64,000 nucleotides of DNA from Fidelibacterota bacterium (GCA_947475295.1 CANJLF010000002.1:120690-184689); one strand, 5' to 3'; positions 7,073 to 61,850 are shown, numbered from the stretch's first letter. Notes: generated from the letters alone by a model not told the origin. Numbers and translations: made by a program.

Positions 7073-7624
7073 TTAACCGATGCGCACAGTTGTATCGTTG
7101 ATATAGGTATGGGCCGGAACTTCGAGGTTCAACGGCGCAGGACCTCGGCGGATGCGGCCCGAGGTATCGTAGACCGAGCCATGGCAGGGACAGAACCAAC
7201 CGCCAAATTCGCCGCGCACTTCGGTCGACGCGGTGCCCTGTGGCACGCAGCCGAAGTGCGTACAGACGCCGACGACAATCAGGAACTCGGGCTTCTTCGC
7301 GCGGACTTGATCGGTCTGCGGATCGCGCAGTTCGGCGACGTTGACCTTGCGGGCTTCGTCGATTTCCTGGGCCGTGCGGTGACTGACGAACACCGGTTTG
7401 CCGCGCCACAGCGCTTTGATGCGCTGGCCCTCGGCGATGCCGGCGAGGCTAAGCTCGATGCTCGATAATGCCAGCGTGTCGGCGGCGGGGTTCATGCTGC
7501 TGATCAAGGGCCAGACCATCATGCCAGCGCCCACAACGCCCATCGCCGCCGTGGTGTGCAACAAAAAGTCGCGACGCGTTTCGTCCGCCGCATCGGCAGC
7601 ATGAGCGTGTGCGGTATTAGCCAT
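7073..7624 (-). CDS. petA: ubiquinol-cytochrome c reductase Rieske iron-sulfur subunit
   Basis: CTHFGCVP and CPCHGSVYD Rieske boxes. N-terminal RRDFL Tat motif. Confidence 0.95.
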
Positions 7625-7877
7625 GATGTAATCCCTCTAACTGTGACCCCGAAGGTCCGTCCCGCAACGCACAGCCAAAAGATGCTTTCGATTCGAGCGA
7701 TTCTTTAGAATTTCGCTCTCGGCAAAAGGGTCTAGCGAAGGGTGAACCTTTATCCTTATTACCCCGAAGACCGGCCCCAACCGGCGGAAGCATAAGGGTT
7801 TTCAGCGCCGCGGGTATAGAATAAAAAGCCCGCCTTGAAAAGACCTCGCGGCAGCGGCCCAGCCCACCCAAAAGTGC

Positions 7878-8354
7878 ATGATGCGTCTCGCCCTTTACCA
7901 GCCCGACATTCCCCAAAACACCGGCGCGGCGCTGCGGCTCGCGGCCTGCTTCAAGGTGCCTGTGGATATCATCGAACCGTGTGGATTTCCTTTTGATGAC
8001 AAGCGTTTACGCCGCAGCGCCATGGACTACGGCGGAGCGTGCGCGCTCGCCCGGCACGACTCCTGGGAGACATTCTTGAAGACCTTCCGGCAGGCCGGCG
8101 GGCAGCGGCTGATCTTGTTATCCACAGCCTCGGCGATCACCTTTACGGACTTCGAATTTCACCCCACGGACACACTGCTTTTGGGGCGGGAAAGCCACGG
8201 CGTGCCGGAAGCCGTCCATAACGCCGCCGACGCCCGGGTCCGCATCCCCATTGCGGCCGATATGCGATCCTTAAATGTCGTGGTCGCGGCGGCGATTGTG
8301 CTGGCCGAGGCCTTGCGCCAGCAGCATGTTTTTCAAGGCCGCACTTTTCTTTAA
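7878..8354 (+). CDS. trmL: tRNA (cytidine/uridine-2'-O-)-methyltransferase TrmL (SpoU family)
   Basis: LALYQPDIPQNTGAALRLAA...GRESHGVP...IPI..DMRSLNV, SPOUT pattern, ~158 aa. Confidence 0.85.
   Translation: MMRLALYQPDIPQNTGAALRLAACFKVPVDIIEPCGFPFDDKRLRRSAMDYGGACALARHDSWETFLKTFRQAGGQRLILLSTASAITFTDFEFHPTDTLLLGRESHGVPEAVHNAADARVRIPIAADMRSLNVVVAAAIVLAEALRQQHVFQGRTFL
8118..8126. promoter_or_regulatory. perfect DnaA-box 9-mer TTATCCACA inside trmL coding sequence
   Basis: Exact match read in the sequence (ctg atc ttg TTA TCC ACA gcc). Function unproven. Confidence 0.3.
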
Positions 8355-56756: not shown

Positions 56757-57161
56757 CTACTCCGCATCCTCGCAGGAAAATCCCAGCTCGCTCAAGCCCT
56801 CTTCCAGCTCGTCGGCCAGGAGCGGCTGGCTGAGCAGATAGCGCGCAACGCGCTTGGGGTGCTCCTCCAGGGCGACCTCGACCGCTTCATCCCAATCGTC
56901 GGCGGTATAGGTGCCGCGTCCGACCCAGGTGAGCGCCACGAGATTGGACTGTTCGTCTTCGTTGAGGCTGTCGATAAACGCCTTGAGATCGTCGAGCTCG
57001 GGATTTCCGGCGTCGCCGCCATCGTCGTCTTCCGGCAGCTCATCGCGCATTGTGTCATCGCCGGCGTGGTGGCCTGGCTCGTCGTCGAGGGGGTCCAGAT
57101 CGGCCAACACCTCGCGCGCGCGGTTGATAACGTAGCAAACGGTCTCGACAGCGATATCCAT
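56757..57161 (-). CDS. acidic protein, DUF3775-like
   Basis: ...SNLVALTWVGRGTYTADDWDEAV... resembles my memory of DUF3775. Very acidic. Confidence 0.55.
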   Translation of the reverse strand: MDIAVETVCYVINRAREVLADLDPLDDEPGHHAGDDTMRDELPEDDDGGDAGNPELDDLKAFIDSLNEDEQSNLVALTWVGRGTYTADDWDEAVEVALEEHPKRVARYLLSQPLLADELEEGLSELGFSCEDAE

Positions 57162-57184: not shown

Positions 57185-58216
57185 CTAGCGCGTCATTGGA
57201 CAGGATTCGCCGAAGGCTTTCAACGCCAGATCGGGGGTGTCGGTGAACAGCCCATCAACGCCCAAGCCGGCGAATTGGCAATATTCTCGCGCGGCACTGC
57301 CGCCGTAACTCGCGGGTAAAAATTGCGCCTCGGGCCGGAAGGTATAGGGGTGCACAAGAAGCCCGGCGCGGTGGGCGCGCGTCACCAGATCGGTGGGCGT
57401 GCCCGCCTGGCCGGCGGCATTGACCGGCACAATCATGGTCTTGGCCGGGCCAATACCCTTGGCATAGCTGGCTACGGCTTTCAGCCCAGCGTCGGTCGTA
57501 AAGGGACCGGCTGCCTCTAAAAGGAGAATATTCGGCAAGGTCGTGAGGGCGGAAAAGCGTTTGACGCTGTCGGCATCGAAAGATTCGAGGAAGATCGGCG
57601 AGCCGGGCCGGTCCAGCGCCCAGGCCTTCAGGATCGACACCAAGGGCTCCTCCAGGGGCCGATTGATGGACCTGAAGTAGGCCGGGTTCTTGACCTCGAT
57701 ATAAACGCCGATGGTGCGCCCGGTCTCGCGCGCCTTGGTAGCCCGCAAGACCAGGATATTGGCGATGGTCGGGATCACGAACCGTCCGTTGTAAGTCTGG
57801 CTGCGGAAGGGCACACGCTCCACGGCGCGCACGGTGGAAAGCTCGTCGAGGGTGAAGTCCTCGGTGAACCAGCCTTCGACGCTTTTGCCGTTGATGACCT
57901 TGGTGGTCTTGCGGTCGGGGAAGCGGCGGGCGACGTCGGTGGTGTCGGCGATGTTGTTCTCATGGCGCGCCACCAGATAGCCGTCCCTGGTGGCCACCAG
58001 ATCGGCCTCGATGTAGTCGGCGCCCTGCTCGATGGCCAGCGCATAGCTCTCGATGGTGTGCTCGGGCAGATAGCCGCTGGCGCCGCGATGGCCGATGACC
58101 AGCGGGCGTTTTTGGGCTGCCTGGGGGGCGGTCGCGGGCTCTGCCGCGAGGGCGGGCAAAACAAAACCGACGACGCATGAGATCAAGAGCAGGCGCAGCA
58201 AGGGGGGTGCCTCCAA
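57185..58216 (-). CDS. glpQ: periplasmic glycerophosphodiester phosphodiesterase
   Basis: Signal peptide, then VIGHRGASGYLPEHT...YIEADLV...HENN... GDPD motifs. Confidence 0.85.
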   Translation of the reverse strand: MEAPPLLRLLLISCVVGFVLPALAAEPATAPQAAQKRPLVIGHRGASGYLPEHTIESYALAIEQGADYIEADLVATRDGYLVARHENNIADTTDVARRFPDRKTTKVINGKSVEGWFTEDFTLDELSTVRAVERVPFRSQTYNGRFVIPTIANILVLRATKARETGRTIGVYIEVKNPAYFRSINRPLEEPLVSILKAWALDRPGSPIFLESFDADSVKRFSALTTLPNILLLEAAGPFTTDAGLKAVASYAKGIGPAKTMIVPVNAAGQAGTPTDLVTRAHRAGLLVHPYTFRPEAQFLPASYGGSAAREYCQFAGLGVDGLFTDTPDLALKAFGESCPMTR

Positions 58217-58317: not shown

Positions 58318-58535
58318 GTTGCATCGCGCGCGCGGAAAAATCTAAACCGGGATGATCGGCGGGAATGAACCCGCCTCGTCATTTTGGAGACCTCAATGCC
58401 GAAACTTTTCCGAAACAACAGTCCCGGCACCCTCACCCGCAAACAAGCCACCGCCTTGATGAAAGAGCGCATCGGCGCACAGAGCGGCGGCGGCGCGGGC
58501 CACGACGTCTCCAACGAACCGCGTGTGCCGAAGGG
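58318..58535 (+). repeat. direct repeat copy 1: shared 5' module (upstream DNA, UTR hairpin, Shine-Dalgarno, first 46 codons)
   Basis: Aligns by eye with 59965-60178, e.g. CTAAACC.G.ATGATCGGCGGGAATGAACCCGCCTCGTCATTTTGGAGACC...ATGCC.... Confidence 0.85.
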
Positions 58536-58707
58536 CAGCGGGGATGAGAGCGGGCAGTGGACTCGGGTAGGATCGGCAGCCGACCTTGGGCCGCAGGCAA
58601 CGCTGCACCCCAAAACGGTCGTCACATGTCGAGTGTGGTGCTCACCATGCTTAAGAAGCGGGAGGGGTATCGCGCTGAGCCTTACGACGACGGCTATGGA
58701 AACATGA
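58396..58707 (+). CDS. N-terminal-module ORF of cassette 1. Either a 103-aa product or the 5' part of a frameshifted module-lysozyme fusion.
   Basis: GGAGA Shine-Dalgarno 5 nt before the ATG. MPKLFRNNSPGTLTRKQATALMKERIGAQSGGGAGHDVSNEPRVPKGSGDESGQWT is shared with cassette 2. The last ~45 aa overlap the lysozyme frame and look like out-of-frame sequence. Confidence 0.4.
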   Translation: MPKLFRNNSPGTLTRKQATALMKERIGAQSGGGAGHDVSNEPRVPKGSGDESGQWTRVGSAADLGPQATLHPKTVVTCRVWCSPCLRSGRGIALSLTTTAMET

Positions 58708-59057
58708 CCTCCGGCTATGGCCATACAGGCCCCTCAACGGGCTCAGCTGAGGAAGACTTTGACGCCGATGTCGCAAAGGCCGATGGGTACGTTCACCACT
58801 ATATCAAAGTGCCCTTAACCCAATATCAGCACGACGCGTTAAGTTCTATTATGTTTAATATGGGACCTGGCAATTTCAGGGAAACATCCCTTCCCAGCTT
58901 GCTGAATGCCGGAAAATTTGATGAGGCTGCCGACACCATTCTTCAATTGAACAAAGCGGAGAATAAGAAAACTGGAAAGATGGAATTTAGCCGAGGCTTG
59001 GCAGACCGCGGAAAACAGGAGTGGCTGTTATTCGTCGGCAAACTTACAAAGCCTTGA
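58626..59057 (+). CDS. GH24 (T4/lambda-type) lysozyme domain protein
   Basis: LKKREGYRAEPYDDGYGNMTSGYGHTG...LTQYQHDALSSIMFNMGPGNF.... The frame is open from 58548. No convincing Shine-Dalgarno before ATG 58626. Confidence 0.7.
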   Translation: MSSVVLTMLKKREGYRAEPYDDGYGNMTSGYGHTGPSTGSAEEDFDADVAKADGYVHHYIKVPLTQYQHDALSSIMFNMGPGNFRETSLPSLLNAGKFDEAADTILQLNKAENKKTGKMEFSRGLADRGKQEWLLFVGKLTKP

Positions 59058-59136
59058 AGCCGAAGTCCCCGACCGGCAAGACAGGCGCCGAAAAATCTGG
59101 CATAATTTTGACCCTTAACAATCGCGAGCTTCGACT

Positions 59137-59928
59137 ATGAAAACCGCGACTTTATATACGCTCGTATTCGGCTTTGCGGTCACTCTCTGCGCATCTGTGC
59201 ATTCGGAAGAGCTCCCCGAAGACAAGCTGATCGCGCTCGCGCGCGAAAGTCAGGAGGCGCCCTCCGTGCCTGGCGTTGACTCTGAGATCGAGCGTCGCGC
59301 GCTCGAGGCAGCCGGTAATTTTGCTTTTCGCAACGGGCATCAGCTTGTACTTGCCCTCGACGAACGCACACGCGTCTACACCGACAATCCGGAGTGCAAG
59401 GAAGAGGAAGAGGACCAGTACGGGAATAGGTCCTACCAAAATTGCGGTAGTTACAAATTGATTGTCTACGCGAAGAGCCGCGACCTCTTCGTCCTGCAAC
59501 GCTTGTGGAACGGCGCCGTTGACTACGTCGTGGTGGAGCGGGGAATGAGACATGAGACTCTGTTCGCGGATTTGCCCCATCTCTCACCCACCGGAGATTT
59601 TGCGGTCGGCACCAATTTGTCTCAGGTCGGTTCAGGAGAGGAAAAGCAATACCCTGAGCCCCATTTGGAGATCTCAATGCGGGGATCGACGTATCACGTG
59701 GACTGGGATGGGGCTCCGCACTATCCGAAAAAAGGCATAGCGCGCTATATCGTTGACGGCTGGCGGAACGACGACCCCGCCATTGAATCCAGCGAGCGCG
59801 CGGTGGAGTTGTTGGCGCACCTTGAGGTGGACGGAAAAGTTAGAGCACGATTCAAAGTGCGCAAAATTCCGCTTCATAAGATGAACGACAATGACGACTT
59901 CTACAAAGTGATCGACATCCGGCGATAG
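59137..59928 (+). CDS. secreted protein of unknown function (candidate immunity partner of the lysozyme)
   Basis: Sec-type signal MKTATLYTLVFGFAVTLCASVHS. AT-rich codon usage like the rest of the islet. No family recognised. Confidence 0.55.
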   Translation: MKTATLYTLVFGFAVTLCASVHSEELPEDKLIALARESQEAPSVPGVDSEIERRALEAAGNFAFRNGHQLVLALDERTRVYTDNPECKEEEEDQYGNRSYQNCGSYKLIVYAKSRDLFVLQRLWNGAVDYVVVERGMRHETLFADLPHLSPTGDFAVGTNLSQVGSGEEKQYPEPHLEISMRGSTYHVDWDGAPHYPKKGIARYIVDGWRNDDPAIESSERAVELLAHLEVDGKVRARFKVRKIPLHKMNDNDDFYKVIDIRR

Positions 59929-59964
59929 AAAAGCAGGATTAGCGGGAACAAGCGCCGCCGCGGC

Positions 59965-60178
59965 CATTGCATTGAGCGCGCCGAAGACTAAACCAGAATG
60001 ATCGGCGGGAATGAACCCGCCTCGTCATTTTGGAGACCCAAATGCCGCCTCTTTTCCGTAACAACAGTCCCGGCGCCCTCACCCGCAAACAAGCCACCGC
60101 CTTGATGAAGGAGCGCCTTAGCGCCCAGAACGGCGGCGGTGCGGGCCACGACGTCTCCAACGAACCGCGCGTGCCGAA
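59965..60178 (+). repeat. direct repeat copy 2 of the shared 5' module
   Basis: See 58318-58535. 41 of 46 N-terminal codons encode identical residues. Confidence 0.85.
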
Positions 60179-60688
60179 AATGAGAGCGGCCAATGGACGA
60201 CGGCTGGATCGTCGTCGGCGCCTCAGCCGCGGGCCAAAGGCCGTGCTTCGGCGAGCGGCGATACTATAACGATTACGGGCTCCGACGGCTCGACCGAGGT
60301 TCGGCAGGGCGGTGACCTGCCGTGGCGAGCCTATAATCCGCACAGTGTCATGGACGGCTCTTTTGCGCGGAGACATGGCGCAATCGGACAGATGAAGGGT
60401 GGACTGGCGATTTTCCCGGACGAAGCGACCGGAGAGGCCGCCGGGGAAGCCCTGTTAAATGGGCCAACTTACTCGTCGCTCACCATTGACAAGGCGATTG
60501 AGAAACGCAGTTCCAAAGAAGCAGGCAATGATCCCGAGAATATAAAACAGCAAGTTCATCAGTTCTCCGGGTTGCCGGGAGATGCTATCATCAAGGACCT
60601 TACACCCGAGGAAAAGCAAAGGCTTTACGCCGCAATTAGGCGCACCGAAGGCCAAAAACCGGGTGTCATAAAACGCAGCGGTCCATGA
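60042..60688 (+). pseudogene. cassette 2: N-terminal module joined out of frame (-1) to an unrecognised ~165-aa C-terminal domain
   Basis: Frame 0 gives MPPLFRNN...EPRVPK, then Arg-rich nonsense to a stop at 60269. The -1 frame reads NESGQWTTAGSSS...DLPWRAYNPHSVMDGSF...KRSGP, open through 60688 (hand-translated, no stops). It is 10 nt shorter than cassette 1 at the junction. Confidence 0.5.
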
Positions 60689-61128
60689 AGCACATCGCTT
60701 TTACAGCGGCAGCAACAACCATAGTTCTAGCGTGCGCTTTTGTATCGAACGCCGCAGAAAGCGCCTGTTTGGAATATGAGCCGGCAATCGTTTCGATGAC
60801 CGGCAAGGTTACGACTCATCTGGAATATGGATCTCCTGGCTTTGGCGAAGATCCGGCTCACGATACGAAAGAGAACTATTGGTATCTCGACCTGGATAAA
60901 CCGATATGCACGAACGGCAAGGACGAGGACTCACCCGATATGGAGGGCGAGGTAAATATTAAACGTCTGCAGATTGTCTTTCTCGATGGCTATCCAAAAA
61001 AACGTTGGGTGGGCCTTCGGGCAGCCATAACCGGGAGGCTGTTTCACGCCGAAACTGGGCACCATCACACGCGTGTTTTGATATTGCCCGAAAGCATAAC
61101 AGAGGACAGTGCGCACCGCGCACCATGA
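60685..61128 (+). CDS. secreted protein of unknown function (candidate immunity partner of cassette 2)
   Basis: Signal MKHIAFTAAATTIVLACAFVSNA. Its ATG overlaps the upstream TGA (ATGA coupling). Confidence 0.55.
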   Translation: MKHIAFTAAATTIVLACAFVSNAAESACLEYEPAIVSMTGKVTTHLEYGSPGFGEDPAHDTKENYWYLDLDKPICTNGKDEDSPDMEGEVNIKRLQIVFLDGYPKKRWVGLRAAITGRLFHAETGHHHTRVLILPESITEDSAHRAP

Positions 61129-61137
61129 AGTAAACGC

Positions 61138-61171
61138 AAAAAAAAGGCCGCTCCCGTCCCCGAAAGCGGCC
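61138..61171 (-). terminator. rho-independent terminator (bidirectional-looking) after the nrdAB-orf unit
   Basis: GGCCGCT-N12-AGCGGCC hairpin with an 8-nt A-run on +, which is TTTTTTTT on -. Confidence 0.75.
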
Positions 61172-61181
61172 CTTCCCCCAG

Positions 61182-61850
61182 TCATTTGATTAGATGCCAT
61201 ACCGCCGCAGCGCCAAAGGGCGAACAGGCGGCCCCTTTTGGAGCTAACATCAAGTCCTCGGACCGTCGCGCGCGCTCGATAGCGTCAACTGGACCGATAA
61301 AGAAAGCATCCCAAAAAGCTATTAGATTTTGCGCCACGTCATGGAACCGATACCGGTTCTTAGTCCGGGGATCGATAACTTTTGCTCTATAAACTAAACG
61401 CATTTCGCCAATTACAATACTTGCCGACGCAAGGATGCAGCTTGTCGCACTAGCAGTAGCTTCTATGAGAACCTCTCCTCGTTGAGCCCTATGTTTTGCG
61501 GTATTGGCGAGTTGTCGCGCAAGAGCAAACGCCAGCACGTTCCGAGAGAGCATGTTCGCGAAGTGGTCAACCTGCGCGACCACATCCCCATTCCGTTGAA
61601 ATTTTTCTGCCAGTTCTTTTCGAATAGGATCAGACAATTCTGGAAACACCCAAGCGCAAACATCATACGCGGTGCTTACTGCGTTAAGCTCTTGATCACG
61701 TCGATTGTCGAAATCCACTAGATCAACTTCGCCAGCTCGCATCAAATCCCGTTTCGCTCGCGCGAGCGCATCTTTCGCGGTCTCGAGATTGACTGCAGCT
61801 AATGGGTATTTGAGCGAAAGGTCGACCAAGTGACTATTCCGCAGCGACAC
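61182..61850 (-). CDS. hypothetical protein (222 aa), AT-richer than neighbours
   Basis: Long ORF co-oriented with nrdB, overlapping its stop by 17 nt and followed by a strong terminator. No family recognised. Confidence 0.45.
   Translation of the reverse strand: MSLRNSHLVDLSLKYPLAAVNLETAKDALARAKRDLMRAGEVDLVDFDNRRDQELNAVSTAYDVCAWVFPELSDPIRKELAEKFQRNGDVVAQVDHFANMLSRNVLAFALARQLANTAKHRAQRGEVLIEATASATSCILASASIVIGEMRLVYRAKVIDPRTKNRYRFHDVAQNLIAFWDAFFIGPVDAIERARRSEDLMLAPKGAACSPFGAAAVWHLIK

Follow-up and report, generated by a model that had tools for sequence, protein, structure and literature searches.

Polymorphic toxin systems such as CdiA-CT/CdiI, with its VENN motif, and Rhs-CT/RhsI are built from a conserved N-terminal part and a junction motif at which the breakpoint to the toxin lies (Zhang et al., 2012, PMC3482391), and polymorphic toxin/immunity cassettes with cell-wall hydrolase cargo are already known. 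The same architecture has been found in a 64,000-nt stretch of DNA from Fidelibacterota bacterium (GCA_947475295.1, CANJLF010000002.1:120690-184689), called the window in the following and counted from its first letter in all coordinates, where two cassettes, each made of a short 5' module, a cell-wall hydrolase domain and a gene for a signal-peptide protein, stand in tandem between 58,318 and 61,128. Further points in common are unrelated C-terminal toxins, an immunity gene that lies immediately downstream and is replaced together with the toxin, cassettes standing in tandem or as orphans, and their frequent decay. We read the locus as a chromosomal hot spot with two tandem polymorphic toxin-immunity cassettes whose toxins are both inactivated by now, a reading to which we assign a probability of roughly three in four. 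Unlike CdiA and Rhs, the locus has none of the large carriers (filamentous, Rhs or PAAR), its conserved part measures no more than ∼35–130 amino acids (aa), and the junction motif, [ND][EQ]PRVP.G.G..SG.WT, differs from VENN, PT-TG and PT-HINT and has no Pfam match.

Cell-wall hydrolases that lack a Sec signal and have a periplasmic or lipoprotein immunity protein encoded directly downstream are also employed by secretion systems of type VI (T6SS; Tse1/Tsi1, Tge/Tgi) and by the type IV secretion system of Xanthomonadales (X-Tfe/X-Tfi), and the window cassettes are alike in this respect. The secretion signals of X-Tfe proteins, however, are C-terminal, whereas the conserved part of the window proteins is N-terminal. 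Features of vgrG, hcp, PAAR, MIX, FIX or XVIPCD have been found neither in the proteins nor in the examined open reading frames (ORFs) of the window or the examined homologous loci, and no genes of type V, VI or VII secretion systems have been seen with the locus. A first-pass annotation, made from the sequence by a model, had been unable to tie the N-terminal module to a known export route. A logic of head-associated carrier and toxin cargo, seen where the junction motif occurs in portal and ART-PolyVal proteins (below), is shared with the MuF family of phage-capsid polymorphic toxins (Jamet et al., 2017, PMC5576092) and with the polyvalent proteins of phages and plasmids (Iyer et al., 2017, PMC5512222). 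The window proteins are distinguished from both by the lack of MuF, portal or polyvalent domains and by a location outside a prophage; moreover, the target of the window toxins would be the cell wall, and their partners are candidates for periplasmic immunity proteins.

The cassettes comprise the following elements (P and L numbers, used below, denote homologous proteins and related loci or contigs that have been compared):

58319 to 58395, plus strand: leader copy 1, with an extended hairpin at 58347–58387 (GC core, then a T-rich tail)
58396 to 58707, plus strand: cassette-1 N-module ORF, 103 aa, in which the leader MPKLFRNNSPGTLTRKQATALMKE... and the junction motif precede ∼47 residues out of frame and then a stop
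58501 to 58563, plus strand: cassette-1 junction ('pre-toxin') motif HDVSNEPRVPKGSGDESGQWT, with a pattern match at 58507–58560 where 0 are expected by chance
58567 to 58604, plus strand: cassette-1 frameshift (0 to −1), localised to this interval and not to a single base
58605 to 59057, plus strand: GH24 (phage-type) lysozyme domain, PF00959, in the −1 frame relative to the N-module
59137 to 59928, plus strand: immunity candidate 1, 263 aa, with an N-terminal Sec signal, outside known families
59967 to 60041, plus strand: leader copy 2, with the same hairpin at 59993–60033 (GC core 60004–60021)
60042 to 60269, plus strand: cassette-2 N-module ORF, 75 aa, with the leader and HDVSNEPRVPK, then out of frame
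60179 to 60688, plus strand: muralytic domain of the Enc34-endolysin type (PHA02564) by homology and predicted fold, in the −1 frame, beginning NESGQWT
60685 to 61128, plus strand: immunity candidate 2, 147 aa, DUF4431 (PF14485, E=7.2e-9), with a signal peptide

Both cassettes begin with a direct repeat, which is 89% identical over 203 nt without gaps (58330–58532 and 59976–60178) and 89.3% identical with 21 mismatches when aligned by blastn (58319–58532 and 59967–60178); a weaker alignment reaches back to ∼58280/59926 and resumes past a 10-bp indel for ∼20 bases, to ∼58566/60199. The first-pass annotation had described a repeat of ∼215 bp with an identity in the high eighties, judged by eye, and this has turned out to be real. 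The same holds for the hairpin core GGCGGG-AATGAA-CCCGCC (58358–58375 and 60004–60021), the Shine-Dalgarno sequence GGAGA (58386–58390 in copy 1) and the identity of 41 of the first 46 codons of both N-module ORFs, which start with ATG at 58396 and 60042.

The N-module ORF of cassette 1 reads through ...EPRVPKGSGDESGQWT, including ESGQWT, to a stop codon at 58705–58707, and its 103-aa product is identical to P0001, which has been found on 16–21 contigs. Comparison with relatives delimits the change of frame, as the 0 frame matches them up to GQWT..GSA and the −1 frame from AAG..PQNGRHMS on. Open from 58548 to 59057, the −1 frame encodes a lysozyme that covers the entire PF00959 profile (positions 1–125 of 125; E=1.5e-23; 83.9 bits, with a Pfam gathering threshold of 22.3) and is 55–57% identical to the lysozymes of the in-frame fusions P0018 and L020; the internal ATG codons at 58626 and 58647 have no evident Shine-Dalgarno site. 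Hence, of the earlier view that ORF 1 runs into a GH24 domain, the lysozyme has held up, and the continuous frame has been lost to the stop and the −1 position of the domain. With respect to other GH24 lysozymes (PF00959; e.g., the gene transfer agent (GTA) endolysin BgtA, and SpmX), the cassette-1 domain is a full-length match, but its relatives differ from them in being fused behind the leader and the motif and followed by a partner gene with a signal peptide.

For cassette 2, a 10-bp deletion after ∼60178, relative to cassette 1, has removed 'GSGD' of the motif and shifted the C-terminal domain to the −1 frame. The continuous effector ORF assumed by the first-pass annotation has thus not been found, given that the N-module ORF (its 75-aa product is identical to P0002, on 15 contigs) ends at 60269; ESGQWT, which had been noted after the module in both copies, is in frame in cassette 1 and lies in the −1 frame in cassette 2. 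The frame of the C-terminal domain is open from 60122 to 60688 and has no start codon before 60350 (76 codons), and homologues align at ∼55% identity over 99% of the query, including the part upstream of this first ATG.

This domain, which had been left unrecognised, is identified by homology and predicted fold as a muralytic domain of the Enc34/PHA02564 type, whose Enc34 representative has been demonstrated experimentally to be muralytic with Glu131 as the catalytic residue (PMC8943055). A profile of its homologues searched against PDB with hmmsearch has matched the Enc34 endolysin (7q47, E=4.9e-8) and Gp29 (9vvp, E=6.8e-11), in the latter case the N-terminal domain of a 1295-aa protein, on which no literature has been found. 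The AlphaFold2 model of the domain has a predicted local distance difference test score (pLDDT) of 76, and Foldseek has returned 7q47 as the top and only confident match (probability 1.0, template modelling score ∼0.5). The family-invariant Glu (E157 of alignment A3, 'RRTEG') is retained, its counterpart in the alignment being the last residue (E) of the segment 'RHE' in Enc34, whereas Trp79 and Tyr95 of Enc34 are apparently not conserved in the cassette-2 subfamily in an alignment by eye; the cassette-2 copy itself carries substitutions of family sequences, with WRAYNPHSV in place of WRNNNPGNI and EGQ in place of EGW. Further differences from Enc34 are the lack of a C-terminal transmembrane domain and of a lysis cassette and the presence of an additional N-terminal beta-strand region. 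An Enc34-like (7Q47) fold has also been cited for a T6SS effector candidate (PMC13340143).

The genes at 59137–59928 and 60685–61128 are both present with their signal peptides as first annotated, and the ATG of the latter overlaps the stop of the cassette-2 domain frame (ATGA). No significant match in Pfam, NCBIfam, PHROG or PDB has been obtained for the 263-aa protein, a homologue of which follows the GH24 cassette in L020, and a literature search for DUF4431 has returned nothing. The proteins encoded downstream of the toxins carry Sec or lipoprotein signals and the hydrolases have no signal peptides. From this arrangement we infer that the gene after each toxin codes for a cognate periplasmic immunity protein.

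Whether the module occurs with different C-termini, whether the downstream genes track them and whether the locus belongs to a prophage lysis context had been put forward as checks by the first-pass annotation, and the homologous loci are informative on all three; none of the refuting conditions named there that computation could address has been found to hold. The leader MxxLFRNxSPGxLT and the motif HDVSNEPRVPKGxGxxSGxWT have been found fused in frame to three clearly different hydrolases rather than to a single domain, namely GH24 (P0018, PF00959, 1e-19), the Enc34 type (P0005–P0008) and 3D (P0016, PF06725, 1.3e-10); additional in-frame Enc34-type fusions of leader or motif are P0009–P0011 and P0021, and with other short leaders the motif precedes a GH73-like domain (P0017), an M74-like domain (P0025, a weak match) and an unknown domain (P0020). 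The downstream gene co-varies with the toxin, as the Enc34 type is accompanied by DUF4431, GH24 by the 263-aa family and 3D by a 186-aa gene. Thus, P0007, an intact Enc34-type toxin in an unrelated housekeeping context (L001/L002), is followed by a DUF4431 gene overlapping its 3' end, and the toxin domains of this locus and the window are 55% and the DUF4431 proteins 60% identical. At the syntenic slot of another organism (bioA-bioB-bioF-bioD-DUF3775-[P0016]-[186 aa]-nrdF-nrdE), a different C-terminal domain is accompanied by a different downstream gene. Holin, spanin and other phage genes have not been found flanking the locus. In four of the relatives (P0005, P0007, P0008 and P0018; e.g., L001 7962–8260), an extra domain of ∼90 aa with the consensus …GRGxDTE[VI]AHVxxGExVxP…INPxTGxPEF lies between leader and motif; neither Pfam, PHROG and NCBIfam nor a tblastn search of 50,697 phage genomes has given a match to it. 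When the repaired window fusions, together with P0008, P0016, P0018, P0024 and others, were compared with Pfam and NCBIfam, matches arose only in the C-terminal enzymes, and the models for PAAR, Rhs, MIX/FIX, LXG/WXG, VENN, PT-TG, PT-HINT, MuF and DUF4157 have found no match in the N-terminal parts.

The cassettes are located in an islet that differs from its surroundings in composition and in the comparison with a sister strain (L020/L021), in which the same slot holds one GH24 cassette:

58552 to 61834, no strand: variable islet, GC content 47–59% (flanks ∼63%)

Up to 58551, a position inside the motif, the window shares 90.6% identity with L020, and from 61835 on the value is 93.2%. Between these breakpoints, the identity drops to 57% for the lysozymes and 46–56% for the 263-aa homologues. 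The homology between the strains is consequently lost inside the very motif at which the repeat within the window ends as well. In L020 (1981–3430), the toxin is in frame, with a TAA in place of the Glu codon of the motif, and the homologue of the 263-aa immunity candidate is frameshifted; as judged from these lesions, toxin and immunity gene are both decaying in the sister strain.

Each cassette would originally have been one gene that encoded a non-Sec leader (MPxLFRNxSPGxLTxxQA...), a motif of ∼20 residues and a C-terminal peptidoglycan glycosidase, which was of the GH24 lysozyme kind in cassette 1 and of the Enc34/PHA02564 type in cassette 2. By recombination at the conserved 5' module, with the motif as the breakpoint, new toxin/immunity ends would be brought in, and such swapping would account for an 89% repeat beside unrelated 3' parts. 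Inactivation would have occurred by the indel within 58567–58604 and by the 10-bp deletion after 60178, with both immunity candidates staying open. The polymorphic effector-immunity locus with two cassettes proposed by the first-pass annotation has accordingly been supported with respect to its module, its co-variation and its breakpoint, and has had to be revised in that both toxins are disrupted here. If it works at all, the islet would now most likely serve as an immunity-retaining relic against relatives that still fire these toxins.

The disrupted frames are open to other explanations. That they are sequencing or assembly artefacts which conceal two intact effector genes might be suggested by the very small change that would restore each gene, and by the first-pass annotation having read both as intact. 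However, contigs from at least four samples or independent metagenome assemblies are 99.98–100% identical to the window including the split ORFs, the split products of 75, 103 and 112 aa (P0002, P0001 and P0004) each occur on 15–21 contigs, and the adjoining housekeeping genes are intact; as independent assemblies share the split sequence, the lesions are features of a natural population and not the error of a single assembly, and a 10-bp deletion is no homopolymer miscall. We therefore consider artefacts extremely improbable. A repair of the AAAA runs at 58607–58610 and 60175–60178 by one A, as for slippage or homopolymer error, has likewise been rejected, because the −1 frame of cassette 1 is homologous to relatives already upstream of the run ('PQNGRHMS' versus 'RPNNHHMS' and 'RNRNRMS') and because the cassette-2 lesion is the deletion. 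Functional cassettes, which employ a programmed −1 ribosomal frameshift or produce leader and hydrolase as separate, translationally coupled products, would be in line with the −1 shift required in both window cassettes and in L017 (6001–6632), where the shift lies between the motif and a GH73-like domain and the stop of the leader ORF overlaps an ATG of the hydrolase frame, and with the fixation of the split sequence across contigs from several samples. A canonical X_XXY_YYZ slippery heptamer has nevertheless not been seen by eye at either site, the cassette-2 deletion also strips conserved motif residues, and the −1 frame of cassette 2, start-less for 76 codons, makes independent translation with the conserved N-terminal strands impossible. 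The types of lesion moreover differ, from a small indel in cassette 1 and the deletion in cassette 2 to a nonsense codon in L020 and a 1-bp insertion (+1) right after GQWT in L014 (6001–6500), a contig labelled as a Methylocella sp. metagenome-assembled genome (MAG); labels of this kind have been seen on two distant motif ORFs. Among the matches listed for the DNA pattern of the motif, 107 of 121 complete motif ORFs (∼88%) are uninterrupted, which speaks for decay and not design as the origin of the split state and renders recoding very improbable in our view. Splitting as a rule in the family had been considered on the basis of homologues found with short queries and has been rejected, as these are all <115 aa and hence enriched for truncated ORFs. 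We have found no intact toxin ORF in this genome, both toxin genes being frameshifted, and recent inactivation of both window toxins with retention of the immunity candidates appears to be the best description.

A remnant prophage lysis module, composed of endolysins and accessory lysis proteins without any interbacterial toxin, would explain why both catalytic domains are of phage endolysin types (GH24 and Enc34/PHA02564), why relatives match PHROG endolysin families and why the GC content of the islet is below that of the flanks. In contrast, no gene for holin, spanin, terminase, capsid or tail has turned up among the neighbouring ORFs or the ten largest ORFs of the window, in a tblastn screen covering the window, or at the homologous loci (L001, L003, L020 and the P0016 contig). 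A conserved non-membrane leader is common to different hydrolase types, the downstream genes co-vary with the type of hydrolase, and tblastn has matched the leader region to none of 50,697 phage genomes, all of which makes such a remnant very unlikely. The same low probability is given to tandem-duplicated housekeeping enzymes of cell-wall remodelling with periplasmic regulators and no antagonistic role, although all C-terminal domains are peptidoglycan hydrolases and the chromosomal context consists of housekeeping genes. Here, the enzymes are without signal peptides and the partner proteins have them, one slot holds different enzyme/partner pairs among related organisms with a turnover of gene content, the same motif precedes nucleases and other cytoplasmic toxins with Imm52-type neighbours, and repeated pseudogenisation speaks against an essential role. 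Several points weigh against two inactivated toxin-immunity cassettes as well. Toxicity, immunity and export are deduced from sequence, and the assignment of immunity in particular is drawn entirely from gene position, signal peptides and co-variation, the last comprising two lineages per pairing, the second of which is just a close relative in the case of the GH24/263-aa pair. No resemblance to a known lysozyme inhibitor has been seen for either immunity candidate, a PDB sequence search has given no match, and the single-sequence AlphaFold2 model of the DUF4431 protein is unusable (pLDDT 33). Both C-domain frames are free of further stops and keep the family-invariant residues, so that inactivation would be recent or some expression persists (e.g., from the internal ATG codons of the lysozyme); this and the shared need for a −1 shift leave a small opening for recoding.

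With respect to the surroundings of the two cassettes, the islet is followed by a terminator-like hairpin and by an ORF of opposite orientation:

61137 to 61180, no strand: strong hairpin, rich in GC, whose minus strand has a T-run and whose plus strand an A-run
61182 to 61850, minus strand: 222-aa ORF inside the low-GC islet, convergent with cassette 2

The hairpin is likely a terminator between the cassette-2 operon and the convergent ORF, as suggested by its sequence. The 222-aa ORF has no significant family match, and L020, the locus of the sister strain, lacks it; on contig L005, which is identical in sequence, a gene caller has instead placed an ORF on the plus strand there, so that the 222-aa ORF is only an uncertain gene. 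The islet is flanked by GDPD, DUF3775, bio genes (bioBFD) and nrdFE, the hot spot lying between the bio operon/GDPD and nrdFE; housekeeping genes make up the window's ten largest ORFs, and a tblastn search of the window with phage and GTA neighbour proteins has returned no homologues. On its upstream side, the slot is bounded by the DUF3775 gene and a gene for a secreted phosphodiesterase of the GDPD family (56757–57161 and 57185–58216, both minus strand). The GDPD gene occurs here in this lineage only. In the organism of P0016 the toxin stands directly after DUF3775, from which it follows that the GDPD gene, too, belongs to the variable content of the hot spot.

The hairpins of the two leaders have been calculated to fold with −26 kcal/mol (z −2.7, with a terminator-like match) in copy 1 and −24.7 kcal/mol (z −3.45) in copy 2, and the paired 3' arm extends across the start of the Shine-Dalgarno sequence GGAGA. 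Across the three copies available (two in the window and L020 1932–1972), exchanges between G and A opposite U preserve the pairing. The structure resembles an intrinsic terminator or attenuator; it belongs to no Rfam family and is conserved neither outside its own lineage nor among cassettes further removed. A conceivable role is that of a brake on toxin expression, at the level of translation or transcription.

The junction motif itself reaches far beyond this lineage. A degenerate DNA pattern of the motif has matched at least 31 contigs of IMG/VR and upwards of 120 from metagenomes, for the most part of peat, bog and soil origin, and the motif precedes at least 33 C-terminal clusters in at least 141 ORFs. 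Positions which had been left free in the pattern are strongly conserved nonetheless (Y/F at −3, P at −1 and the S of 'SG.W'). The N-terminal regions belong in 83 of 91 cases, among the matches listed, to one family of ∼145 aa, which is represented by no Pfam or NCBIfam model, just as leader and junction motif are not covered by any model of Pfam, NCBIfam or PHROG; tblastn searches with the GDTE-domain leader and the 145-aa domain against INPHARED phages and PLSDB plasmids have remained without a match. The two subfamilies are linked by L093/P0024, in which the 145-aa domain is combined with the window-type form 'HDVSNEPRVPKG' of the motif. A Tox-REase-5 toxin gene and Imm52 genes are among the neighbours of the motif ORFs. 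Tandem arrays of two or three motif toxins within 3–10 kb occur in L141 (3061–10823), L098, L115, L121 and L164, and in L141, L042 and L087 the motif-toxin genes are interspersed with a pair of 495-aa and 273-aa ORFs, whose sizes suggest an IS21-type element.

A part of these loci is associated with genes of phage-like particles. The motif has been observed at the C-terminal end of Mu-type portals (L045/L078, PF06074, 1e-31; L078 715–2937, minus strand, and L045 6–1634) and of HK97-type portals (L050 548–2503, TIGR01537, 3e-66; L109 8567–11446, minus strand), in each case before a variable tail with a domain of ∼130–200 aa, and also just before the variable tail of an ART-PolyVal polyvalent protein (L041), so that a resemblance to polyvalent proteins, noted in the first-pass annotation, has found its counterpart here. 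L109 contains a full portal gene, a 229-aa ORF and a duplicated 3' fragment of the portal with the motif, which resembles an orphan displaced cassette. In L039 (2599–14773), a motif toxin, a 300-aa ORF, a Tox-REase-5 toxin and two Imm52 genes, in this order, fill the space between the g13 hub, which GTA_TIM+DUF2460 precedes, and the g14 NlpC peptidase, after which g15 comes. The same slot between g13 and g14 is occupied in L034/L134, L037 and L044, as seen from flanking tblastn matches to g13-like and g14/g15-like genes, and the partial contigs L031, L053 and L094 are consistent with a g13–g14/g15 slot. On L126, a metagenome contig of 180 kb, a 200-aa motif ORF (7354–7953, minus strand) lies directly upstream of g12 (DUF2460), followed by g13–g15, and holds the position of the tape measure in RcGTA-like clusters. 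A head or tail context has thus been seen in L031, L034, L037, L039, L044, L053, L094 and L126 and in the portal fusions L045/L078, L050 and L109, but particle genes are neighbours at about three of ∼23 long metagenome loci, so the association is real and partial, and no head or tail genes stand beside the toxin in the window or at any locus of the leader type (L001, L003, L020 and the P0016 contig). Literature searches have yielded no relevant paper on gene transfer agents combined with polymorphic toxins and none on toxin/immunity cassettes between g13 and g14/g15 of RcGTA-like modules.

One may tentatively postulate that the motif [YF]x[P][DN][QE]PRVP[AK]GxGxxSGxWT marks an undescribed toxin superfamily carried by a phage-derived particle (RcGTA-like or prophage) in place of a classical secretion system, a proposal that we hold possible but doubtful. 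The motif would then serve for docking or processing and connect exchangeable cargo with an N-terminal part associated with the particle, which may be the C-terminus of a portal, a helical domain of ∼145 aa encoded between g13 and g14, or a short leader. Stand-alone cassettes like those of the window would represent satellite cargo and immunity genes for a particle encoded elsewhere in the genome, and recipient cells would receive the cell-wall hydrolases in their periplasm. We regard particle-mediated delivery as a tentative lead rather than a finding.

No description of the leader, the junction motif, the 145-aa N-terminal domain or the pairing of DUF4431 with Enc34-type enzymes has been found in the libraries and literature searched. 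For this genome taken by itself the finding is modest, because both toxins appear to be dead. If the reading as decayed toxin-immunity cassettes holds, the order of cassette decay at a chromosomal hot spot would be documented, with the toxins lost first and the immunity kept, and DUF4431 would receive a provisional role in immunity to Enc34-type muramidases. The locus would furthermore provide an entry point to a large unannotated family of polymorphic toxins, abundant in peat and soil metagenomes and defined by a motif of ∼20 residues and several exchangeable N-terminal modules, and it would raise the testable question of whether GTA-like or phage particles carry protein toxins between bacteria.

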